From Candidatus Poribacteria bacterium (GTDB lineage Bacteria > Poribacteria > WGA-4E > WGA-3G): 64,000 nucleotides of DNA. The position numbers and the translations under genes are program-made. The notes beneath the pieces are model-generated. The model was not told the origin of the DNA. It saw nothing but the letters and a program-made list of their open reading frames with translations, and did no database searches. Shown here piece after piece: positions 14,394 to 44,783 of this stretch (position 1 is the stretch's first letter; every line of letters begins with the position of its first letter). The stretch lies in contig JAJEAG010000051.1 in NCBI GenBank assembly GCA_022824265.1, positions 12,818-76,817 of the forward strand, given 5' to 3'.

Positions 14394-16025
14394 CTACGAA
14401 TTATTATCTGTTTTGCCGTAGCCACCACCCCCAGGTGTTTCAATCTGAATAACGTCACCTTCGCGAGCAGAAAGAGTAACTTTCCCTTCAAGCAGTTGTT
14501 CCTCCTCGTCACGGATTAGCACATTCCGTCCTAACTGACCCGATTCCCCACCTTGCAATCCATAAGGATGAAACATTCTCCGTTCAGAAAGGATAGTAAC
14601 CTCTGCATCAGTAAGAAGCCTGAAAGAACGCACAATCCCGGACCCACCTTGAAATTCTCCTGCTCCACCAGTACCACGCCGAATCGAATAACTCTCAACC
14701 TGTAGCGGATAACTCGTTTCAATTGTCTCAATAGGTGTATTCATTGTATTCGTCATGTGTGTATGAATGGCATCAATTCCATCGCAAGTTGGACGTGCAC
14801 CCATACCACCAGCGATGGTCTCATAATAGGTAAAATCCCGTCCTCGTAATACATCATGTCCACCTATTGTAATGTTATTCATAGTACCGCTACTTGCAGC
14901 AGGAATTAGGTCAGGACACGCCTGCGCCAACGTACCAAAAAGCACATCAACGATACGTTGTGAGGTCTCAACATTTCCACCAGCTACTGCAGCTGGAAAT
15001 TTAGCATTGATAACACTACCTTCAGGAGCAATAATTTGGATCGGTTCCATACATCCAGCATTGGATGGCACATCAACGCCAGCAACACATCGGAACGTAT
15101 AAAAGACAGCTGAGACTGCAATTGCATATATCGCATTAACGGAGCCTCGCACCTGTTCTGATGTACCTGTAAAATCTACAACTGCTGTGTCATCCTTAAT
15201 TTCAATAGAAACCCGTATTTCTATCGGTTCATCAGTTATTCCATCGTTATCCATATAATCCGAAAATGTATAGATTCCATCATTAATTTCTCGTAAGAAT
15301 GATCGCACCATGCGGCTGGAATAGGAGCATAACGCTTGCATGTAAGACTCGATTTCTGGAACACCGTATTTGGACACCAATTCCTGTAATCTACGTTCAC
15401 CGATACGGTTGGCTGCGAGTTGTGCCTCCATGTCCCCATGCCGTTCTGTTGGTGTCCGTACATTGGCAAGAATGAATTCCCACATGTCAGAATCCAGTTC
15501 ACCACCTCTGACAAGTTTTACTGGTGGAATACGGATACCTTCCTGAATTACACTCGTCGCTAAAGGCATAGAACCGGGAGTCATACCACCCACATCTGCG
15601 TGATGTGCGCGGTTCGCTACATAGAACGTAGGACAAACCGCAGATTCTTCTCCAAAGACTGGGGCAACCAAAGTTATATCTGGAAGGTGTGTACCACCAC
15701 GATATGGATCATTAAGCACGATCATATCTCCAGGTTCCATTTCGGTATGTTCTATTGCTGCCAAAACCGAAAGCGGCATTGAACCCAGATGGACAGGTAT
15801 ATGTGCAGCCTGTGCTACCATCTGTCCTGAACCATCAAAAACTGCACAAGAGAAATCAAGACGTTCCTTGATGTTCGGTGAGAAAGCAGTCCGTTGCAGT
15901 GTAACACCCATCTCTTCTGATACTGAAGTAAGGAGATTTTTATAGAGTTCTAATTTTATTGGGTCAAAGTTCATGAGATGTTGGTTTAGGTAAATTGTGT
16001 TTAGAAGTATCTTGCATTTTAACAT
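14394..16025 (-). CDS. hyuB: Hydantoinase B / 5-oxoprolinase family protein (HyuB). The true start is possibly the internal Met (MNFDPIKLELYKN, ~nt 15972).
   Basis: FDPIKLELYKN...LQRTAFSPNIKERLDFSCAVFD and NDPYRGGTHLPDITLVAPVF signatures. Confidence 0.85.
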   Translation of the reverse strand: MLKCKILLNTIYLNQHLMNFDPIKLELYKNLLTSVSEEMGVTLQRTAFSPNIKERLDFSCAVFDGSGQMVAQAAHIPVHLGSMPLSVLAAIEHTEMEPGDMIVLNDPYRGGTHLPDITLVAPVFGEESAVCPTFYVANRAHHADVGGMTPGSMPLATSVIQEGIRIPPVKLVRGGELDSDMWEFILANVRTPTERHGDMEAQLAANRIGERRLQELVSKYGVPEIESYMQALCSYSSRMVRSFLREINDGIYTFSDYMDNDGITDEPIEIRVSIEIKDDTAVVDFTGTSEQVRGSVNAIYAIAVSAVFYTFRCVAGVDVPSNAGCMEPIQIIAPEGSVINAKFPAAVAGGNVETSQRIVDVLFGTLAQACPDLIPAASSGTMNNITIGGHDVLRGRDFTYYETIAGGMGARPTCDGIDAIHTHMTNTMNTPIETIETSYPLQVESYSIRRGTGGAGEFQGGSGIVRSFRLLTDAEVTILSERRMFHPYGLQGGESGQLGRNVLIRDEEEQLLEGKVTLSAREGDVIQIETPGGGGYGKTDNNS

Positions 16026-36160: not shown

Positions 36161-39100
36161 ATGAGAATACTGTGTAATTACATAATAATCAGTTGTTTGT
36201 TGATATTTATTTCTGTCGGTATTGTTGACGCACAACAGAATCTGGCACAACAAGCTTATGCAATCATGGAGCAATCCTGCCTTATATGCCACGGGGAGAA
36301 CGGCTCATATACAGAGGCACTTATCATTGAATACACAGCACTCATTGATGACGGAAAAGTCGTTCCTAGTGATCCAGACGGTTCTGTGTTCTATCAAAGA
36401 CTCATCGAAACGAATATTGCTAAACGTATGCCGCTCGGACAGCCTGCGCTTGATCCCGCTGCGATTGAAACGATACGTCAATGGATTGCAGCAGGCGCAC
36501 CCGATTGGGATGCCGTGTCAAGACCAGAGACTAACTTCATTACAACTGATACTATGTTTGAAACGATTGAGAACCACGTCAATTCTCTTGCTCCACGTGA
36601 TAAATTGTTTGCACGTTATTTTTCGTTGACACATCTCTATAACGCAGGTGAGACAACTGAAGCACTTCAAGCATATCGGCGTGCCCTTTCGAAACTGATC
36701 AATAGTCTCTCTTGGGGTCGTGAAGTTGTTAAACCAATTCCTATTGATACCGAAGAAACCATTTACTACATTGATCTCCGAGACTATGAATGGGATGTGA
36801 GAAACGACGCATGGACACAGGTTGAGCAGGCATATCCCTACAAAATGATGTACGATGCACCAACACAGATACATCTCCGCGAAAAACTAACGACTCTACA
36901 GCAGGAGATGAACTGTGAAGTTCCGTTTGTTCATGTGGATTGGTTCATCGCAAATGCTTCCTTACCACCCCTCTATCACGATATTTTGCAGCTGCCACTG
37001 ACAGACCGAGAACTGGAAGAAAAACTTGGGATATCAGTTAAAGAAAACATACAGAACGCACCAAGAAAACGTGTCTGGCGTGCAGGTTTCAGTGATTCTG
37101 GAGTCTCAAATCACAACAGAGTTGTAGAACGTCATAATTTTCAACACGGTGCATACTGGAAAAGTTATGACTTCGCGGGAAGTGCCGATTCACAGAATAT
37201 ATTTACCCATCCGCTTAATTTTACACATGACGGTGGCGAAATTATCTTCAACCTACCGAACGGATTACAAGCGTATCTTTTGGTAGATAGTAACGGTAAC
37301 CGGCTTGATGTAGCACCCACAGATATCGTTTCTAATCCTGCTGCAAGTGATCCTGCCGTCCGCAACGGTCTTTCGTGTATCGGTTGCCACACAGAAGGGA
37401 TGAAGACGTTTGAAGACGAGGTGCGTGCTGTAGTTGAACAGGCAAATAATCCGCTTTTTAACAAGGCACGAGCATTAGAACTCTATGTGGAACAAGAGAT
37501 AATGGATGAGTTTGTTGAAGAGGATACGCTACGTTATAGGAACGCTCTTGAGAAAGCGGGTGGTATATTTGGGGGTATTGAGCCGATTCAACGTTTCCAT
37601 GAGGTGTTTCAAGGTGCGCTTGATGCTGCACATGCTGCAGCTGCTGTTGGGTTAGAGACCGATACATTCCTTGAGAGAATAAGCAAAAGTCCAACTTTAC
37701 AAAACTTATTAGGGGCATTGGTGTTAGATAACGGTGCCATCAAACGAGACGCATGGACATCGGCTTTCCACGATGTGATTTCTGCGCTGAATTCTCCTGA
37801 TACCGTACTGCCACCCATAGAACAACCAGAACGTATACCAGGTGCTTCAGTGAATATACCCGATCTGAACCTTCGCGCTGTAATTGAAGAAGCACTCGGT
37901 AAAGCGATGGGTGAGGTTATTACTGTTGAGGATATGGAAAGTTTGACGAGATTTGTTGGGAATGACAAAGGCATTCAAGATTTGACAGGTGTTGAATTTG
38001 CAAAAAATTTAACCTACTTTGAAATTCGACGTAATATGGTCAACGATCTCACTCCAATTGCAAGTTTAACAAATCTGAGTGGATTACGTGTGCAAGGAAA
38101 CAATATATCAGATATATCTCCAATAATTGACCTTAAAAGAATAGGAACACTTGAAATATATGATAATCAAATTTCTGACATTTCCCCAATTGGGGAACTA
38201 ACGAACTTATTTTGGTTGTCTATGACTAATAATCCAATCAATGATATCTCACCACTTGCTAATTTGAAAAAGCTGAACGGAATTCGATTGAATTTCGAAG
38301 ATTCTACTGATTTTTCTCCTATAGCAGAATTAACAAACTTAGAAAGGTTTTTCTTATGGGGTGCTGGTAAACCTATACCTGATTTGACACCCTTAGCTAA
38401 CTTACAAAAATTAAAAATCTTAGACCTACGCGGCGAAGGAGTACCTGATTTGTCTCCTATTGCACAATTAGACAACTTGGGAAGATTTGAATTTTGGGGA
38501 TCGGGTGAAAACCTACCTGATCTGTTACCTTTAGCAGAATCAAATAATTTGAAGGAATTATGGGTCATAAATTGCGGAATCACAGATCTAACTTTTATAG
38601 AGAACTTCACAAGTTTGGAAAGGTTAAATCTTGAACGGAATAATATAACAGATGTGTCACCGTTAGCAAAATTGACAAACTTAAAATGGCTAAAACTTAC
38701 AAACAATCCAATATCTGACTTTTCACCTTTAGCAGAATTCGCACAAACTACTAACGTCCTCACAGGAGATGTTGCAATTAATGATCCCAACCTACGTGCG
38801 GCAATTGCAGTAGCACTTGGTAAAGGCTACAGTAGGATTGTTTCAATTACATTGGAAGAGTTGGCAACTTTGACTCACCTTGATGCTAAAAATGATAATG
38901 AGTCACAGAATGAAAATATCAGCAATTTAACGGGTTTGGAGTTTGCAATAAATCTAAGTTATTTGAATATTGCTGGCAATTCAGTATCAGATTTAACACC
39001 AATCGAAGGTTTAACAGAACTTAGTTTCTTAGATGCTCAAGATAACTTAATATCGGATACAATACCACTTAAAGGATTAACTAATCTACGAGGTTTAATT

Positions 39101-42100
39101 CTTAATCGTAACTTGATTAATGATTTATCACCTCTCATGGGATTAACACAACTTCAAGATTTACGCGTTGCTAATAACCTGATTTCTGATTTTTCTCCAC
39201 TTGCTAAACTCACTACATTGAAAAAGTTAACGATTTCAGGCAGCTCGTTTTCTGACTTATCCATACTAACGGGATTAATTAACCTTGAAGGGTTATGGAT
39301 ATCCCACAGTTCGCTAACCGACCTGTCACCGCTTGTGGAATTAATGAACCTGGAGGGTATGTCCGTTTGGGATTCACCTGTAGCAGATCTATCCCCATTG
39401 GTAGGACTACCAAAACTGAAATGGTTGGATTTTGGTCGCACTCCGATATCAGGTCTTTCACCATTAGCGAATATAGTAACCTTGCGAAAACTGACATTTT
39501 ACGACTGTGGAATAGAAGATCTTTCAGTTCTTAAAGGTTTAACAGAGTTGGTACATATTAAAATGCCACACAACGCGATTTCGGATGTTTCACCGTTAGC
39601 GGGGTTAATACATCTAACGTATTTGGAGTTAGGTGACAATGCAATATCGGATATATCTGCATTGGAACAATTAACCAATTTAGAAACTCTATGGATCAAT
39701 AATAACAACATATCAGACGTATCACCTTTGTCAGAATTGACTAACTTACAAGAACTAAAACTTCGTAATAACCCGATAACAGATTTTTCACCTTTAGTTA
39801 ATCTCTTTGACAATACATATATACTGTATGATCTTATTATTCCAGATGTGAACCTACGTGCAGCGATTGCAGAAGCACTCGGAAAAGAAGATGCTACTGC
39901 CTCAATTACATTTGTAGAAATGGCATCTTTGACAACCTTATCAGCGAGCAATAAGGATATTAAAGATTTAACAGGTATTGAACACGCGATAAATCTGGAA
40001 GAGATATGGGTCGGAAAAAACCCGTTGTTTGATCTTTCACCACTCGCAGGATTGACAAACCTTGTCGGTATAAGTGCTTGGGAAACCCCTATATCCGATT
40101 TGTCGTCCTTGAAAGATTTAACGAAATTGAGATGGTTAGATTTTGGTCGTACCGATGTACATGACTTGTCTTCTTTGAAAGATTTAACGAACTTGAAAAA
40201 ACTGAAGTTCTATGGTTGTGGTGTCATAGAAGATCTTTCACCACTGGAAGGCTTAACAGCGTTGACAGAAATGAACTTTGGAGGCAATCCTATATCCGAC
40301 TTATCTCCGCTGGCAGTGTTAGTCAACTTGGAACATTTAGATTTTCACGGGGATAACATTGCTGACCTCTCACCCTTGGCTGGGTTGAACAAACTGAGAC
40401 ATCTTGATCTTCGTGCTAATTCATTATCTGATGTATCAGCTTTGGCTGGATTAACCAGTTTAACAAACCTTTTACTTGGCGATAACAAAATCTCTGACGT
40501 ATCACCCTTAGCAGGATTATTCAACTTAGAGTATCTATTCCTTAGAGAGAATTTAATAACCGACATCTCTCCATTGAATAATTTGCACAAAGATATATAT
40601 ATTGATTGGCTAAGAAACCCTGGTGCCCCCAAAGAGGGACCGAAATTAGAAGGTCCTTGGTTATGTGTATTGATTCCAGGAAAACGACTCGATAGCGACA
40701 CTGATTTATTAGCAGATACGAGTGATGGGTCCGTAACAGAACATCAGATTGCGACAAAAGGCGCACTGGAAGGAAAAGCTGTAGGAGATAAAAAGTGGAC
40801 ATCACATAGAATATCTCCCACTGGTAGAAATAATTTTAAAGATGTCTTGAGAACTTTCGATGTCCCTCCAGATCAGGATACAAGCGATAATGTTGTTTAT
40901 GCTTGCATAATAATAGGTTCACAGCAAGAACAGAACACAAAATTGCTATTGGGCAGTGAAGGACATCACAAGATTTGGTTAAATGGTGATTTGATACATC
41001 AGGATGTTGGTCTCGATGCCCATGATTCGCGTGATTATGGTATGTTCCTCCCTGTTACCTTGAAACAAGGCGCGAATATTTTATTAGTTGCAATTGATAG
41101 TGGACATTGGATTACAGGACATTTCGGTTTTGAAGAAGGGACTGAGTACACGGTGGTTCCACCTGGTGTTGGTTTCTCATTCACTGCAACAGAGATCTCC
41201 CTCCTTGCAGGTGATACGTTCACACTTAACCTTAACGCTGAAAACATCACTGATTTGGCAGGATGGCAAACAGATATTGCGTTTGACCCGAATGTGCTTG
41301 AAGCAGTTGAAGTCACCGAAGGCGATTTTCTGAAGTCAGAAGGTGGAGATACCTTCTTCCAAGGCGGGACGATTGATAACGCTACAGGGAATATTTCAAC
41401 TATATTTTCGACACGGATATCTGAAAATGGTAGTAGCGGTACAGGTGCATTGCTGTCGGTAATATTCAAGGCAAAAGCAGCAGGTGAAACTCAGGTGACA
41501 TTAGAAAACTTTGAGTTTGTCTCTATCACCGATGACATTATTCCTACTGTCCATCCTAATATTACTATCACTGTGGGAGAATATCCTGCATGGGATGTGA
41601 ATCAGGATGGACGCGTGAGTATTCTGGATCTTATTCTCGTAGCAAGGGATTTCGGATCAGGTGCAACTGCTAACTTACGCACAGATGTAAATCGAGATGG
41701 CGTAATCAATATCCAAGACCTTATCATTGTCGCACAACACATGGGTGAAACGACAGATTCCGCAGCACCTAATGTATATGTAATGGATAGCAAAGAACTA
41801 ACCCCAGCAATAGTACAAGAATGGATTCAACTGGCACAAATAGAAGATGACGGATCGCTCGCTTTCCAACAAGGCATAGAGAACCTTCAACGTCTATTAG
41901 CATCACTGCTTCCTGAAAAGACTGCACTTCTCGCAAACTATCCGAATCCCTTCAATCCTGAGACATGGATACCGTACCAACTCGCGAAACCTGCAGAGGT
42001 TACTTTGACGATTTATACTATAAACGGATCGGTTATTCGGATATTGGCGTTAGGACATCAGGGTGCTGGAATCTATCAGAGTCGTAGTCGTGCTGCGTAT

Positions 42101-42208
42101 TGGGATGGCAGGAATGAGGTTGGAGAATTCGTAGCAAGTGGAGTGTATTTCTATACACTCACTGCAGGTGATTTTATAGCAACCCGACGGATGTTAATTC
42201 TGAAGTAA
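36161..42208 (+). CDS. Giant secreted multidomain protein (2015 aa). Domains: signal peptide; planctomycete-type cytochrome c (PSCyt1-like) heme module with 2 CxxCH; three duplicated blocks of internalin-like leucine-rich repeats; a beta-sandwich region; cohesin-like domain; dockerin; T9SS-type C-terminal sorting domain.
   Basis: Heme module: SCLICHGENG ... VVPSDPDGSVFYQRLIE ... MPLGQPALDPAAIETIRQWIAAGAP, and a second CIGCH. LRRs: about 45 repeats of 22 aa (LTNLxxLxLxxNxISDISPLAxL), each block opening with NLRAAIxxALGK. Cohesin-like: GDTFTLNLNAENITDLAGWQTDIAFDPNVLEAVEV...ALLSVIFKAKAAGETQVTL. Dockerin: DVNQDGRVSILDLILVAR ... DVNRDGVINIQDLIIVAQH. C-terminal: ANYPNPFNPETWIPYQL...VTLTIYTINGSVIR...WDGRNEVGEFVASGVYFYTL...RRMLILK. 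Confidence 0.85.
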   Translation: MRILCNYIIISCLLIFISVGIVDAQQNLAQQAYAIMEQSCLICHGENGSYTEALIIEYTALIDDGKVVPSDPDGSVFYQRLIETNIAKRMPLGQPALDPAAIETIRQWIAAGAPDWDAVSRPETNFITTDTMFETIENHVNSLAPRDKLFARYFSLTHLYNAGETTEALQAYRRALSKLINSLSWGREVVKPIPIDTEETIYYIDLRDYEWDVRNDAWTQVEQAYPYKMMYDAPTQIHLREKLTTLQQEMNCEVPFVHVDWFIANASLPPLYHDILQLPLTDRELEEKLGISVKENIQNAPRKRVWRAGFSDSGVSNHNRVVERHNFQHGAYWKSYDFAGSADSQNIFTHPLNFTHDGGEIIFNLPNGLQAYLLVDSNGNRLDVAPTDIVSNPAASDPAVRNGLSCIGCHTEGMKTFEDEVRAVVEQANNPLFNKARALELYVEQEIMDEFVEEDTLRYRNALEKAGGIFGGIEPIQRFHEVFQGALDAAHAAAAVGLETDTFLERISKSPTLQNLLGALVLDNGAIKRDAWTSAFHDVISALNSPDTVLPPIEQPERIPGASVNIPDLNLRAVIEEALGKAMGEVITVEDMESLTRFVGNDKGIQDLTGVEFAKNLTYFEIRRNMVNDLTPIASLTNLSGLRVQGNNISDISPIIDLKRIGTLEIYDNQISDISPIGELTNLFWLSMTNNPINDISPLANLKKLNGIRLNFEDSTDFSPIAELTNLERFFLWGAGKPIPDLTPLANLQKLKILDLRGEGVPDLSPIAQLDNLGRFEFWGSGENLPDLLPLAESNNLKELWVINCGITDLTFIENFTSLERLNLERNNITDVSPLAKLTNLKWLKLTNNPISDFSPLAEFAQTTNVLTGDVAINDPNLRAAIAVALGKGYSRIVSITLEELATLTHLDAKNDNESQNENISNLTGLEFAINLSYLNIAGNSVSDLTPIEGLTELSFLDAQDNLISDTIPLKGLTNLRGLILNRNLINDLSPLMGLTQLQDLRVANNLISDFSPLAKLTTLKKLTISGSSFSDLSILTGLINLEGLWISHSSLTDLSPLVELMNLEGMSVWDSPVADLSPLVGLPKLKWLDFGRTPISGLSPLANIVTLRKLTFYDCGIEDLSVLKGLTELVHIKMPHNAISDVSPLAGLIHLTYLELGDNAISDISALEQLTNLETLWINNNNISDVSPLSELTNLQELKLRNNPITDFSPLVNLFDNTYILYDLIIPDVNLRAAIAEALGKEDATASITFVEMASLTTLSASNKDIKDLTGIEHAINLEEIWVGKNPLFDLSPLAGLTNLVGISAWETPISDLSSLKDLTKLRWLDFGRTDVHDLSSLKDLTNLKKLKFYGCGVIEDLSPLEGLTALTEMNFGGNPISDLSPLAVLVNLEHLDFHGDNIADLSPLAGLNKLRHLDLRANSLSDVSALAGLTSLTNLLLGDNKISDVSPLAGLFNLEYLFLRENLITDISPLNNLHKDIYIDWLRNPGAPKEGPKLEGPWLCVLIPGKRLDSDTDLLADTSDGSVTEHQIATKGALEGKAVGDKKWTSHRISPTGRNNFKDVLRTFDVPPDQDTSDNVVYACIIIGSQQEQNTKLLLGSEGHHKIWLNGDLIHQDVGLDAHDSRDYGMFLPVTLKQGANILLVAIDSGHWITGHFGFEEGTEYTVVPPGVGFSFTATEISLLAGDTFTLNLNAENITDLAGWQTDIAFDPNVLEAVEVTEGDFLKSEGGDTFFQGGTIDNATGNISTIFSTRISENGSSGTGALLSVIFKAKAAGETQVTLENFEFVSITDDIIPTVHPNITITVGEYPAWDVNQDGRVSILDLILVARDFGSGATANLRTDVNRDGVINIQDLIIVAQHMGETTDSAAPNVYVMDSKELTPAIVQEWIQLAQIEDDGSLAFQQGIENLQRLLASLLPEKTALLANYPNPFNPETWIPYQLAKPAEVTLTIYTINGSVIRILALGHQGAGIYQSRSRAAYWDGRNEVGEFVASGVYFYTLTAGDFIATRRMLILK

Positions 42209-42279: not shown

Positions 42280-42765
42280 TCAAGAATCAGTAGAGGTTGT
42301 AGCTTCTAACTCCGCTTGACATTCAGCACAATGACCAATAATCTCGTTACGGAAGCGAACTGGTTTAAATTGGTGTGCTTCACAAACTGCTTTTTGCAGC
42401 GCATCAATCTGCGGTTCTTTGAATTCAACGATCTGACCACACCGAAGGCAAATAAGGTGAGCATGCTCTTTGAGTGAGTGAATACTCTCGTAACGAGTGT
42501 TTTTCTGTGCATCAATGAATTCTGTTAGCAACCCACTTTGGACAAGTAAAGGTAGCGTCCTATAGATGGTTGGACGGGAAACGTTGAATCCGTTTTGACG
42601 CATATGAACCAAAAGATCCTCTGTCTGAAAATGTCCTGGATATGCGAATACTTGGCTCAACACATCCATTCGCTTTTGAGTCAAACGAAGTCCTGAACTT
42701 TTCAGAAAATCTTCAAACTGTTGTGTAAAATCGTCAACTGTTGTATGTTCTTCATTGGTATCCAT
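42280..42765 (-). CDS. Fur-family metalloregulator (Fur/Zur/PerR)
   Basis: DNA-binding helix SRPTIYRTLPLLVQSGLL and C-terminal CxxC ... CxxC zinc site (ICLRCG ... HCAEC). Confidence 0.85.
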   Translation of the reverse strand: MDTNEEHTTVDDFTQQFEDFLKSSGLRLTQKRMDVLSQVFAYPGHFQTEDLLVHMRQNGFNVSRPTIYRTLPLLVQSGLLTEFIDAQKNTRYESIHSLKEHAHLICLRCGQIVEFKEPQIDALQKAVCEAHQFKPVRFRNEIIGHCAECQAELEATTSTDS

Positions 42766-42837
42766 TTTCTTACCTAATTGATGTATTTTATTGTTGGCGA
42801 CGATTCTTCCTGATGGAATAGAATTAATTTAAAGCTG

Positions 42838-43668
42838 TTATATTAGTTGTGTATTGGCAAAGGATAAAGTCTGTCCGGGTTCGACAAGATTATTCTTCTC
42901 AGCAAGTTTGTAAAAATATTTTAGTCCTTCAATAGATGATTCATCCAAATCGTAATGAATGTGGTGTTGCAAGTATCTTCTACAGAGGTCTTCGGTAAAA
43001 CCGTGCTTAGGTCCTTCAATTCGAGCAATCTCAGGTATTTGCTCAATCCCAAGTGTTTTTGCTTCTAACAACAGATTTGGCACATTCCCAAGTTTCACTT
43101 CTCCTCTGGTGACCCAACAAGCGTATACGAATGGTAAACCTGTTAGTTCATGCCATTCAGTACCAAGGTCAGTACAATATTTTGTAGCACCGAGATTTTT
43201 GAGTGCTGCATCCCCAATAAGTAACACTGCGTCAGTTTTTGCTGATGCTGGATCAATTGAAGGATCACAATTTATGAACGTTGGATACAGTTGATATTTT
43301 TCAGCGAGTATGATTTTTAGCAGGGTAACTGACGAACGCGAACTTGTGTCTAATGCAATTTGCTGAATTTCTTGAATAGGAACACGACTGAATAACTGGA
43401 TACTCAAGACGCTACCGTGTGATCCAATAGCCATGTTAGGAAGGATACGGTAGCCTGCTCCTTTAGCATTTGCTCGAAAGTATTCAATAATCGGGATTAA
43501 ACCAATATCCAATTCACCATCGCTTAATTGGGTTGCAAGACGACTTGGAACCTTGACACTGAGGGAAATCTCTTCTGTTTGAAGTTGTCCGTTCAAAAAG
43601 GGGTAAATAAGCGGCTTAGTATTTAAAAATGACACTGCACCTACTCTCAAGCAGCTTTTCTGATCCAC
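42838..43668 (-). CDS. Futalosine-pathway menaquinone biosynthesis protein, MqnA/MqnD family (probably chorismate dehydratase MqnA)
   Basis: N-terminal LRVGAVSFLNTKPL and periplasmic-binding-protein-like fold typical of the VitK2_biosynth family. Overlaps the upstream radical SAM gene by 22 nt. Confidence 0.7.
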   Translation of the reverse strand: MDQKSCLRVGAVSFLNTKPLIYPFLNGQLQTEEISLSVKVPSRLATQLSDGELDIGLIPIIEYFRANAKGAGYRILPNMAIGSHGSVLSIQLFSRVPIQEIQQIALDTSSRSSVTLLKIILAEKYQLYPTFINCDPSIDPASAKTDAVLLIGDAALKNLGATKYCTDLGTEWHELTGLPFVYACWVTRGEVKLGNVPNLLLEAKTLGIEQIPEIARIEGPKHGFTEDLCRRYLQHHIHYDLDESSIEGLKYFYKLAEKNNLVEPGQTLSFANTQLI

Positions 43669-44783
43669 CTTTTTCCCTCTCGGATGATTTCATTGTAAAG
43701 TGTATCGCGTTCTACTGGAATATAACCTGCCTCTTCAATGAGACGTGTGAGGGCATCAACTGAAACAGCCTCCGGTGTATCTGCACCTGCCATGTGTGTA
43801 ATCTTTTCCTCAGTCACAGTGCCATCTATGTCATCTGAACCGAAACTTAGAGCAATTTGTGCAGTTTTCAATCCTGTCATAATCCAATAAACTTTGATAT
43901 GCGGTATATTGTCCAGCATCAGACGTGATACAGCTATGTTACGTAAATCTGTTAAACCTGTCGTTGAAGGCAGATATGCCATACGCGTGTTAGCAGGATG
44001 AAATGCCAGCGGGATAAACGTTACAAAGCCACCCGATTTATCTTGTTGTTCTCGTAATCTGATGAGGTGGTCAACCCTATCCTCATTAGTTTCAAGGTGT
44101 CCATACAGCATCGTCGCGTTAGTCGGAATATTCAGTTTATGCGCAATACCATGAATTTCAAGCCAACCTTCAGCACTTAGTTTACCGGGACATATTTTTT
44201 CCCGTGTCTCTTCAGCAAATATCTCTGCACCACCACCGGGAAGTGAATCCAAACCTGCATCACGGAGTTGTGTCAACACCTCCTCTATGGACATTTTGAA
44301 TATACGTGAAAAATGATGAATTTCAACGGCAGTAAAGAATTTTAGGTGGACATCGGGCATCCGTTCTTTGAGTCCATGGATAATCTGTAGGTAATAATCA
44401 AATGGTAATTTTGGATGTAGACCACCAACGCTATGAATTTCGGTACAGCCATGTTCAATAGAATACATCGCTTTATCTAAGAATTCATCAACGCTCATCT
44501 CCCACGCGCCTTCTGTTTGCATGTTTTTTCGGGCAAAGGCACAAAAATGACATCTGGCATGAAGTATACATACATTTGAATAATCTATATGTTGATTAAT
44601 GTTGAAATACGCAACATTGCCATTCATGCGTTGGCGTACATAGTTTGCGATAAAACCGACCCCGGTAATATCCGAACTTTCGTAAAGCGTTACTCCCTCC
44701 TCAAAAGAGAGCCGCTCCTCTGCTTTAACTTTTTCATAGATAGCAGGTAACTTAGGATCGGTAAGTGGGTTATAGTTCTCCAT
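43647..44783 (-). CDS. Radical SAM enzyme of the MqnE/MqnC (CofH-like) family
   Basis: N-terminal architecture RLSFEEGVTL...NQHIDYSNVC....C..CAF and a TIM-barrel radical SAM core. The cysteine spacing reads CX5CX2C (CILHARCHFC). Confidence 0.75.
   Translation of the reverse strand: MENYNPLTDPKLPAIYEKVKAEERLSFEEGVTLYESSDITGVGFIANYVRQRMNGNVAYFNINQHIDYSNVCILHARCHFCAFARKNMQTEGAWEMSVDEFLDKAMYSIEHGCTEIHSVGGLHPKLPFDYYLQIIHGLKERMPDVHLKFFTAVEIHHFSRIFKMSIEEVLTQLRDAGLDSLPGGGAEIFAEETREKICPGKLSAEGWLEIHGIAHKLNIPTNATMLYGHLETNEDRVDHLIRLREQQDKSGGFVTFIPLAFHPANTRMAYLPSTTGLTDLRNIAVSRLMLDNIPHIKVYWIMTGLKTAQIALSFGSDDIDGTVTEEKITHMAGADTPEAVSVDALTRLIEEAGYIPVERDTLYNEIIREGKRWIRKAA

Follow-up and report, generated by a model that had tools for sequence, protein, structure and literature searches.

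What use a Candidatus Poribacteria cell would make of a secreted chain that carries a cohesin, a dockerin and a T9SS-type tail is the question raised by the locus described here, which lies in a 64,000-nucleotide stretch of contig JAJEAG010000051.1 (the window). A sequence-only reading had placed the three domains on one polypeptide at 40620..42208 and proposed a non-cellulolytic use of the cohesin-dockerin lock in surface-layer assembly. That segment is the C-terminal quarter of a single 2015-residue open reading frame, read in the same frame, and all three domains proved real by profile matches. An identical protein is recorded on a 125-kb metagenome scaffold (ENA ERZ23491076). The protein consists of a putative signal peptide, a two-CxxCH domain, three leucine-rich-repeat (LRR) modules, a lectin-like beta-sandwich, a cohesin, a dockerin, a helical hairpin and a T9SS-type A / FlgD-Ig sorting domain, an order kept in full in the relatives P0123, P0125, P0135 and P0144. 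No catalytic domain was recognisable in the window protein in Pfam and NCBIfam profile searches. The whole gene and its N-terminal parts are:

36161..42208, + strand: whole gene, secreted multidomain protein of 2015 amino acids (open reading frame list; stop codon at 42206..42208)
36161..36232, + strand: putative Sec-type signal peptide, residues 1-24, MRILCNYIIISCLLIFISVGIVDA followed by QQ (read from the sequence)
36233..37840, + strand: N-terminal domain with two CxxCH motifs, at 36278..36292 and 37376..37390 (homologue alignment, profiles)
37844..40615, + strand: three internalin-like LRR modules (Pfam LRR_4, caps, DNA repeats)
40634..41161, + strand: beta-sandwich "mid" domain, residues 1492-1667 (fold like the galactose-binding-like N-terminal domain of GH2 enzymes)

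The signal peptide looks like a Sec signal from its hydrophobic core and V-D-A site. Both CxxCH motifs of the N-terminal domain are invariant in 59 homologues, 57-58 of which match the PSCyt1 or Cytochrome_CBB3 profile; the first ~90 residues of the domain resemble a c-type cytochrome (PSCyt1), FoxE (5mab) gave a weak match, and the AF2 model of the domain was poor (pLDDT 50). The LRR region yielded 281.8 bits over 18 stretches with Pfam LRR_4, contains the diverged DNA repeats D1 and D2, and is divided by an 'NLRAAIxxALGK' cap that opens each module (residues 570, 877 and 1231). The predicted LRR fold is of the internalin type, yet the protein is no internalin orthologue, an assignment rejected on NF033188/NF033189 scores of 457.5 bits (InlH cut-off 1050) and 449.6 bits (InlA cut-off 1600).

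The C-terminal quarter, apart from the mid domain, forms a cassette of cohesin, five-residue linker, dockerin, conserved helical hairpin and sorting domain:

41171..41578, + strand: cohesin module, residues 1671-1806 (Pfam match; coordinates checked by translation)
41579..41593, + strand: five-residue linker EYPAW from cohesin to dockerin (alignment of 188 relatives)
41594..41752, + strand: dockerin, residues 1812-1864, two repeats of calcium loop plus helix (Pfam Dockerin_1)
41594..41629, + strand: dockerin calcium loop 1, DVNQDGRVSILD (translation)
41684..41719, + strand: dockerin calcium loop 2, DVNRDGVINIQD (translation)
41804..41908, + strand: two-helix hairpin, residues 1882-1916, between dockerin and sorting domain (AF2, conservation)
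41927..42205, + strand: C-terminal sorting domain, residues 1923-2015, T9SS type A / FlgD Ig-like beta-sandwich (TIGR04183, FlgD_ig)

Both modules of the presumed lock score above their Pfam gathering thresholds. Cohesin (PF00963) matched residues 1683-1789 of the whole protein with an E-value of 3.9e-10 and 40.5 bits (gathering 24.1), and the 528-residue C-terminal fragment with 42.8 bits; the module folds as a nine-stranded jelly-roll beta-sandwich and can be superposed on solved cohesins. Its earlier placement at 41160..41580 was only slightly refined. The dockerin follows the cohesin as had been read, the gap being five residues in place of about 10, and the linker is short in every one of the 188 aligned relatives. 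Dockerin_1 (PF00404) matched residues 1812-1860 of the whole protein with an E-value of 2.3e-8 and 34.6 bits (gathering 22.9), and the fragment with 40.8 bits. Had the repeats been generic EF-hand loops of another family, the idea of a lock would have fallen; the EF-hand profiles all stay below threshold (EF-hand_7 18.1 against 30, EF-hand_1 15.9 against 25.4, EF-hand_6 15.9 against 25). Positions D1, N3, D5 and D12 of both calcium loops are invariant in 188 sequences, except that D5 of loop 2 is kept in 187 of them, and the two repeats are nearly symmetrical (consensus ..SILDLILVAQ.. and ..NI[L/Q]DLILVAQ..), with predicted helices at fragment positions 334-342 and 364-372. In the PDB, the dockerin was matched best by that of 2y3n_B (5.9e-8) and by the type II X-dockerin of CipA (3kcp_A). 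The hairpin accompanies every dockerin and is missing from relatives that have the sorting domain only; its helices were modelled by AF2 at fragment positions 395-407 and 413-429 with pLDDT 79-88, and W1888, A1892, G1905, I1906, L1909, L1912 and L1913 are near-invariant.

The sorting domain matched the NCBIfam model TIGR04183 ('T9SS type A sorting domain') at residues 1927-2013 of 2015 with 29.1 bits (cut-off 23), and FlgD_ig with 27.8 bits on the 528-residue fragment (cut-off 27). Pfam Por_Secre_tail (PF18962) reached 15.8 bits in the window protein, below its cut-off of 27; it was matched at E≤1e-4 by 30 of 67 relatives. All 188 aligned relatives keep the motif PNPFNPETW.PY, which is flanked by the near-invariant N1926, Y1927 and I1937. 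Neither in the window, nor in its contig neighbourhood, nor in the regions flanking 80 related loci were genes for the T9SS machinery (SprA/Sov, PorV, PorU, GldK/L/M/N) found. The one C25 peptidase seen, close to a paralogue, was considered for the PorU sortase and rejected, as it scored 31.7 bits with PorU2 (cut-off 450); it matched the gingipain pro-domain and, by sequence, resembles gingipain cargo. The T9SS-type anchor of the earlier reading is a prediction from sequence, a TIGR04183 match above cut-off: the domain's profile is closer to FlgD Ig domains (6.9e-6) than to solved Bacteroidota T9SS sorting domains (0.03-1.6), and a search of single-cell genomes of Poribacteria is reported to have found no Por/T9SS structural genes (Kamke et al. 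2014). That study, in whose supplementary tables these domains already appear, expressly left undecided how the TIGR04183-tagged proteins are secreted.

The cassette belongs to a large family. At least 7,938 database relatives were counted, and 4,007 clusters at 50% identity (E≤1e-30). Their variable N-terminal parts consist mostly of protein-binding repeats (LRR, WD40). Among the best 80 of at least 593 genomic matches, 77 were labelled Candidatus Poribacteria and three 'uncultured bacterium', with up to three cassette loci per assembly. Of 146 new cluster representatives, 84 had one cohesin with dockerin and C-terminal domain (CTD), 38 had dockerin and CTD only, and 15 had two or three cohesins. 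Four cohesins were present in the paralogues P0005, P0016 and P0018, all with signal peptides, and three in P0063. These paralogues with 2-4 tandem cohesins and one dockerin look like scaffoldins; the window protein has one cohesin. A single cohesin type and a single dockerin type were seen across the family, the window cohesin sharing 52-59% identity with single cohesins and with those of multi-cohesin proteins, distal and proximal alike. Nearly every dockerin protein has its own sorting domain, and relatives with the sorting domain alone also exist. Cassette genes often stand in tandem: in 16 of the 80 loci another gene of the same type as the window's follows immediately downstream, and one locus has, in order, a four-cohesin gene, a gene for a haem domain, LRR, cohesin, dockerin and CTD, and a gene for LRR, dockerin and CTD.

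A docking network among family members is plausible from these sequences, because the paralogues combine 2-4 tandem cohesins with one dockerin, only one type of each module occurs, and the genes are arranged in tandem. The reading that we favour, at about even confidence, is that the proteins are exported by their own sorting domains and then cross-linked in trans by calcium-dependent cohesin-dockerin contacts into a surface display network. Sec would take each protein into the periplasm, and the sorting domain would guide it across the outer membrane, then probably being removed or used in attachment, in the manner of type IX secretion. The reported lack of T9SS structural genes, the gingipain-like C25 peptidase and the FlgD-like profile of the tail count against the reading. 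Once outside, the dockerin with calcium would bind a cohesin on an adjacent member of the family or on a paralogue with several cohesins, and the protein's own cohesin would conversely take the dockerin of another member. The outcome would be a non-covalently cross-linked network, or chains, holding eukaryote-like repeat proteins on the cell surface, an adhesin-display analogue of the cellulosome and no degradative machine. That almost every dockerin protein has its own sorting domain suits such side-by-side linking of proteins exported one by one more than the recruitment of soluble enzymes. "Surface-layer" assembly, as first proposed, overstates this; the evidence suggests at most that repeat proteins are displayed in a cross-linked network, for which no final membrane anchor was identified.

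Covariation was inconclusive as to the contact itself. In 277 cassettes (mutual information with APC) no cohesin-dockerin pair exceeded the background between domains (highest value 0.187; 0.30 within domains). An invariant interface would be expected to give such a result, which lends binding no positive support. The strongest pairs between the cohesin and the dockerin region involve linker residues, which hints at a fixed junction, and with a pTM of 0.50 the relative placement of the domains is not confidently predicted. These data bear on an improbable alternative, namely that the cohesin and dockerin of one chain bind each other, or pack rigidly with the hairpin, as a calcium-dependent stalk or latch beside the sorting domain with no intermolecular assembly. 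The very short linker, the presence of E1807, Y1808, A1810 and W1811 in the top covariation pairs with cohesin residues, the weak covariation of the dockerin helix residues A1828, L1824 and A1858 with hairpin W1888, and the high pLDDT of the hairpin helices, which suggests packing against something, would all suit it; the covariation values are, however, at background level. Binding in cis would also be unlikely on geometric grounds, as a five-residue tether leaving the last cohesin strand would probably not reach the canonical binding face. Many relatives, moreover, have dockerin, hairpin and CTD with no cohesin and others 2-4 cohesins per dockerin, numbers that do not fit an obligate 1:1 cis pair.

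More doubtful still is the view that the folds have been kept as spacers and the pairing lost, the dockerin and hairpin perhaps being part of an extended export or attachment signal of a non-T9SS poribacterial pathway. Most cohesin and dockerin modules from outside cellulosomes are not known to have been assayed for binding (Peer et al. 2009), and this counts in its favour. Dockerin, hairpin and sorting domain always occur together, and the invariant PNPFNPETW.PY implies a common recognition machinery in bacteria for which the T9SS structural genes are reported absent. Relatives with the sorting domain alone, however, indicate that this domain needs no dockerin; why cohesins should multiply in tandem is difficult to see unless every copy has a ligand; and strictly conserved calcium loops and helix faces are what a maintained binding function predicts.

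The trans-linked display network has precedents in cohesin-dockerin scaffolds outside cellulosomes and in a cohesin scaffold with a T9SS sorting domain. Cohesin and dockerin on one polypeptide are the normal scaffoldin architecture, known also from non-cellulosomal systems, and in themselves not unusual; the kind of system is already known, and in the phylum Poribacteria it has not been studied before. Cellulosomal scaffoldins (Clostridium thermocellum CipA, with type I cohesins and X-dockerin II, and Acetivibrio cellulolyticus ScaA/ScaB) likewise bear cohesin(s) and a C-terminal dockerin with duplicated calcium loops on one secreted chain. The closest cohesins and dockerins by sequence are of type II, from the CipA and A. 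cellulolyticus systems, and the Coh9-X-DocII chains 3kcp_A and 4fl4 of CipA align to the model of the window protein over ~310 columns. The differences are that the poribacterial host has an outer membrane and a T9SS-type tail, whereas scaffoldins use SLH- or sortase-anchored partner proteins; that every poribacterial component has its own sorting domain; that the cohesin-dockerin linker is only five residues long and a helical hairpin follows the dockerin; that only one type of each module is seen, unlike the non-matching types of CipA; and that the cargo is LRR or WD40 repeats rather than CAZymes. Recurrent cargo families in 67 cluster representatives were LRR (15) and WD40 (9). The census covered the 25 commonest families, which included neither glycoside hydrolases nor CBMs; beyond this range rare enzymes may exist. 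The non-cellulolytic use proposed earlier is supported by these counts, which also speak for the display network, and the cellulosomal pattern of dockerins mainly on carbohydrate-active enzymes with a scaffold CBM was not seen within the same range.

Known non-cellulosomal cohesin-dockerin proteins include an Archaeoglobus fulgidus cohesin (2xdh), the toxin-complex cohesins of Clostridium perfringens (2jh2, 2vo8, 2w1n) and dockerin and multi-cohesin proteins of ANME archaea. Unlike these, which belong to other phyla, the poribacterial modules are joined to a T9SS-type sorting domain and eukaryote-like repeat cargo, and their expansion, to thousands of clusters, is far larger. LRR domains also occur on T9SS type A cargo of Bacteroidota, namely InlJ of Porphyromonas gingivalis and BspA of Tannerella forsythia. 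The window protein shares with them an internalin-like LRR region, a TIGR04183-matching C-terminal domain and a presumed role in adhesion to host or partner cells, and its N-terminus looks like the signal peptide that they carry; they lack cohesin, dockerin and hairpin, and their hosts, unlike Poribacteria as reported, have a demonstrated T9SS. Tandem cohesins and a conserved T9SS C-terminal domain also meet in a scaffoldin-like protein of Candidatus Stygibacter (Cloacimonadota), likewise a non-Firmicutes candidate phylum, where cohesins are joined to a T9SS-type sorting domain for surface attachment (PMC8542988). The dockerins of that system, however, are borne by enzymes (GH18, GH57, S8, C25), the sorting domain is on the scaffold only, and the proposed role is polymer degradation, whereas the poribacterial chain combines cohesin, dockerin, sorting domain and mostly non-enzymatic cargo.

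The least probable alternative, a degradative cellulosome-like complex in which scaffoldins assemble peptidases and glycosidases that break down sponge matrix or dissolved polymers, with the LRR proteins as accessory binders of substrate or host, could draw on the scaffoldin-like paralogues, on peptidase motifs at the start of some members (HEIGHAFGLFH, zincin-like, in P0036; a subtilisin-like N-terminus in P0212), on the likeness of the mid domain to the sugar-binding domain of GH2 enzymes and on the comparable proposal for Cloacimonadota, but it is opposed by the cargo census, by the window protein's lack of a recognisable catalytic domain and by the sorting domains on nearly all dockerin proteins, which cellulosomal enzymes do not have.

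A bolder form of the display network, in which the Poribacteria coat would be a calcium-dependent, cohesin-dockerin cross-linked lattice of LRR, WD40 and haem-motif proteins, each exported via its FlgD-Ig-type C-terminal domain by a non-classical (highly divergent or new) pathway, is considered rather unlikely as a whole.

Sponge-symbiont genomes have eukaryote-like repeat proteins as their hallmark, a role in host recognition is ascribed to these proteins, and the cassette bears on how they are exported and held at the surface. Shared by thousands of proteins, and together with multi-cohesin scaffolds, it leads to a concrete, testable model of surface organisation, and it offers expressible modules for binding work and a sorting motif as a lead to the export machinery. 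For the cellulosome field, this would be a very large non-degradative cohesin-dockerin radiation in an outer-membrane bacterium; an export tag on each subunit would amount to an assembly logic unlike that of classical cellulosomes, and the invariant modules could supply orthogonal pairs for the designer-scaffold toolbox. The lattice with non-classical export, if true, would add a new secretion or attachment route and would put the cellulosome lock to a new biological use, in which a sponge symbiont displays adhesins towards its host.

Positions 40620 to 42208 form the final quarter of a single 2015-codon open reading frame in the ORF list (36161..42208, forward strand) and do not constitute a separate gene. 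Its first codons encode a hydrophobic stretch that resembles a signal peptide (MRILCNYIIISCLLIFISVGIVDA|QQ), and a residue-for-residue identical protein is recorded on a 125-kb metagenome scaffold (ENA ERZ23491076). The features of the product, all on the forward strand and with residues numbered from its start, are as follows.

N-terminus, forward: putative signal peptide, the first element
36233..37840 (residues 25-560), forward: domain of ~535 residues with two CxxCH motifs, both invariant
36278..36292 (residues 40-44), forward: CxxCH motif 1, invariant among homologues
37376..37390 (residues 406-410), forward: CxxCH motif 2, invariant among homologues
37844..40615, forward: three internalin-like LRR modules, with an 'NLRAAIxxALGK' cap at residues 570, 877 and 1231
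40634..41161 (residues 1492-1667), forward: beta-sandwich mid domain (predicted fold)
residues 1671-1806, forward: cohesin (Pfam)
residues 1812-1864, forward: dockerin with two calcium loops (Pfam)
between dockerin and hairpin, forward: short linker of low confidence (AlphaFold2 model)
41804..41908 (residues 1882-1916), forward: two-helix hairpin (AlphaFold2 model)
residues 1923-2015, forward: C-terminal beta-sandwich, the C-terminal sorting domain (CTD; AlphaFold2 model)

The same full architecture, with a varying number of LRR modules, was found in the database relatives P0123 (2278 aa), P0125 (1711 aa), P0135 and P0144.

The sequence-only reading had placed a cohesin, a dockerin and a T9SS-type tail on one polypeptide, and all three profiles scored above their cut-offs. 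In the whole protein, Pfam Cohesin matched residues 1683-1789 (E 3.9e-10, 40.5 bits, gathering threshold 24.1) and Dockerin_1 matched residues 1812-1860 (E 2.3e-8, 34.6 bits, gathering threshold 22.9), whereas the EF-hand models remained well below their Pfam cut-offs, so that a generic EF-hand-like calcium loop in place of a dockerin was rejected. The NCBIfam model TIGR04183 'T9SS type A sorting domain' matched residues 1927-2013 (29.1 bits, cut-off 23). With the 528-residue C-terminal fragment as query, the Pfam scores were 42.8 bits for Cohesin, 40.8 bits for Dockerin_1 and 27.8 bits for FlgD_ig (cut-off 27). The calcium loops of the dockerin are DVNQDGRVSILD (41594..41629) and DVNRDGVINIQD (41684..41719). 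By sequence, the closest solved dockerins were those of Bacteroides cellulosolvens Cel48 (2y3n_B, 5.9e-8) and the CipA type II X-dockerin, and the closest solved cohesins were of type II (3l8q and 5g5d_A). An AlphaFold2 model of residues 1488-2015, built on 69 relatives, had a mean pLDDT of 85 and a pTM of 0.50, at which the packing of the domains is not reliably given. On the strength of the profile scores, the model, the nearest solved structures and the calcium loops the observation was confirmed; the spacing between cohesin and dockerin, put at about 10 residues, was corrected to five (EYPAW), and the proposed use in non-cellulolytic surface-layer assembly, a reasonable interpretation, found partial support.

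The genes around the window gene are housekeeping genes (encoding Fur, an MqnA-like protein, a radical SAM protein, a class Ib tRNA synthetase of the TyrS/TrpS type, PriA, ribosomal protein S2, EF-Ts and others). None of the flanking genes bears on secretion or surface assembly, and a functional link to the neighbours was therefore rejected. Directly downstream, three convergent genes are found.

42280..42765, reverse: Fur-family regulator, directly downstream of the window gene
42838..43668, reverse: MqnA-like menaquinone (futalosine pathway) gene
43647..44783, reverse: radical-SAM gene of the CofH_C type

This trio (42280..44783) is ordinary housekeeping and shows no evident connection with the surface protein. 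A search of all six frames with the cassette HMM (cohesin, five-residue linker, dockerin, hairpin and CTD) returned the window gene as its sole match, hence no second copy in the window. For the ORF at 14394..16025, no exact-protein record is on file.

For the N-terminal haem-motif domain at least 2,910 homologues were found; those few that are named are Poribacteria, and many of the homologues are stand-alone proteins of 540-650 aa or are fused to LRR modules only. The first ~90 residues matched PSCyt1, a cytochrome c family of planctomycetes, in 57 of 59 homologues, and PSCyt1 or Cytochrome_CBB3 in 57-58 of the 59. Weak similarity to fatty-acid cis/trans isomerase (24 bits) and to FoxE, an iron oxidase, was also seen. 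The AlphaFold2 model of this domain had a pLDDT of 50 and was thus too poor for a fold search. With haem binding predicted from the CxxCH motifs, the protein may be a c-type cytochrome displayed at the surface on a stalk of LRR modules, which would be an odd arrangement. The LRR repeats (37844..40615) share only 60-80% identity in their DNA, and their duplications are therefore old; GC content falls to 0.357 at 38-40 kb, compared with ~0.41 elsewhere. No Pfam model matched the mid domain (residues 1492-1667). In its predicted fold it is similar to the galactose-binding-like (sugar-binding) N-terminal domain of GH2 enzymes, and it may be a lectin-like module. One to three copies occur in relatives (three in P0133), and in P0036 it joins a zincin-like peptidase to the cassette.

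Using the last 528 residues as query, at least 7,938 protein relatives were found at E≤1e-5; the few named ones are labeled 'Candidatus Poribacteria bacterium', and each of the best 120 carries Cohesin, Dockerin_1 and FlgD_ig. Among 1.84 billion representatives of clusters at 50% identity, the 344-residue cassette matched 4,007 clusters at E≤1e-30 and 39,190 at E≤1e-10. At least 593 matches were confirmed in GTDB species-representative genomes, and the best 80 of these loci are labeled Poribacteria (77) or 'uncultured bacterium' (3), with several sharing an assembly. Across an alignment of 188 distinct cassettes, the calcium ligands of the two loops show no or almost no variation, and the dockerin helices are almost identical between repeats 1 and 2. 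The hairpin residues W1888, A1892, G1905, I1906, L1909, L1912 and L1913 are almost invariant in the same alignment; the motif PNPFNPETW.PY in the first part of the CTD is free of substitutions, and the flanking N1926, Y1927 and I1937 are near-invariant.

Regarding the 146 new cluster representatives, 84 combine one cohesin with dockerin and CTD, 38 carry dockerin and CTD without a cohesin, 12 have two cohesins and three have three. The relatives P0005, P0016 and P0018 consist of a signal peptide, four cohesins, dockerin, hairpin and CTD and are thus laid out like a scaffoldin. The window cohesin shares 52-59% identity, to about the same degree, with distal and proximal cohesins in multi-cohesin proteins and with single cohesins, and the family shows one type of cohesin and one type of dockerin only. 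The hairpin, whose residues 1882-1916 are covered by no Pfam family, is always present with the dockerin and is missing from CTD-only relatives; it may stabilize or mask the dockerin, in a way reminiscent of an X-module or of the intramolecular clasp seen in certain dockerins.

The identities of the domains, how they are conserved and the architectures within the family are direct observations, and the mode of action that follows is inferred from them. The signal peptide and the CTD would act as tags for export to the cell surface and, because every member carries its own CTD, each would be delivered there independently. Cohesin and dockerin would then serve as a calcium-dependent clip between neighboring proteins. 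If binding takes place in trans, one-cohesin proteins would be joined head-to-tail, free cohesins would take up dockerin-only proteins, and each four-cohesin protein would hold several partners; as the two dockerin repeats are nearly symmetrical, the dockerin could bind in either orientation. Such clipping would produce a cross-linked network with LRR, WD40 and haem-motif domains facing outward. We regard this overall picture, of independently exported proteins, a putative trans clip and a surface display network, as evenly poised between right and wrong.

We consider it unlikely that cohesin, dockerin and hairpin form one unit by packing or latching in cis. Family members have zero to four cohesins per dockerin, a variable stoichiometry which speaks against an obligate cis pair, and a tether of five residues makes it geometrically unlikely that the dockerin reaches the binding face of its own cohesin. 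The picture of a trans clip is weakened, for its part, by an analysis of mutual information with APC (277 cassettes, Meff 165), in which cohesin-dockerin pairs did not exceed the background between domains (maximum 0.187, compared with 0.30 within domains). The top pairs involve linker residues, which hints at no more than a fixed cohesin-dockerin junction, and weak pairs connect dockerin helix residues with W1888 of the hairpin, so that the hairpin may cover part of the dockerin. That binding was lost and the dockerin-hairpin persists as a spacer or a piece of the export signal appears quite improbable, since cohesins occur in tandem and the calcium loops are strictly conserved. A degradative, cellulosome-like complex is very unlikely given the cargo, i.e., the variable N-terminal part, which comprises LRR in 15 and WD40 propellers in nine of 67 representatives, with no glycoside-hydrolase or CBM family among their 25 commonest families; a few family members start with peptidase motifs.

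Regarding export of the cassette proteins, the 'T9SS' label of the CTD is a putative assignment taken from the sorting-domain profile. Pfam Por_Secre_tail scored below its cut-off in the window protein, and in a comparison with the PDB the CTD profile, made from a sorting-domain-only alignment, was closer to FlgD Ig-like domains (6.9e-6) than to solved T9SS sorting domains, PorU or PorZ (0.03-1.6). Por/T9SS structural genes were not found in poribacterial genomes (Kamke et al. 2014).

Cassette genes frequently occur in tandem arrays of two or three (L062, L044, L071, L064, L034 and 16 further loci). The commonest downstream neighbor is a window-type gene with haem-motif domain and LRR (54-62% identity to residues 5-857), and such a gene lies just downstream in 16 of 80 loci. 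At L083, which lies on a poribacterial contig of 5.24 Mb, the gene directly after a four-cohesin gene is a paralogue of the window gene (haem-motif domain, LRR, cohesin, dockerin and CTD), and the next one encodes LRR, dockerin and CTD. About 8 kb from the four-cohesin gene, a 2164-aa protein with Propeptide_C25, Peptidase_C25 and FlgD_ig is encoded (L083 1..1600, reverse strand), the N-terminus of which matches the pro-domain of the gingipain Kgp (5mun_A, 1.1e-8). It is a predicted gingipain-like cargo protein in a phylum outside Bacteroidota. It was the one candidate for T9SS machinery encountered; its candidacy as a PorU sortase, and thereby as evidence of a T9SS, was rejected on account of marginal PorU scores (31.7 bits, cut-off 450) and the gingipain-type pro-domain.

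The co-occurrence of cohesin and dockerin, initially read as unusual, proved less so, since scaffoldins and adaptor scaffoldins normally carry both on one chain. In cellulosomes the anchoring scaffoldin alone is cell-bound, whereas every member of the poribacterial family has its own CTD. Non-cellulosomal cohesin and dockerin modules reportedly occur across bacteria and archaea, and LRR proteins bearing a T9SS sorting domain are well known in oral Bacteroidota. ANME archaeal proteins combine one dockerin with up to five cohesins, and a scaffold described from a Cloacimonadota MAG has tandem cohesins and a T9SS C-terminal domain (PMC8542988). Public annotations call some relatives 'cohesin domain-containing protein', and supplementary tables list pfam00404, pfam00963, FlgD_ig and TIGR04183 on WD40 and LRR genes (Kamke et al. 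2014). In the literature searched, no paper discussing Poribacteria together with cohesin, dockerin or cellulosome was found, although Kamke et al. (2013) may mention these domains. What looks new is the system-level picture of a fixed cohesin-dockerin-hairpin-sorting-domain cassette in a very large radiation, together with its coupling to eukaryote-like repeat cargo and an export tag on every subunit.
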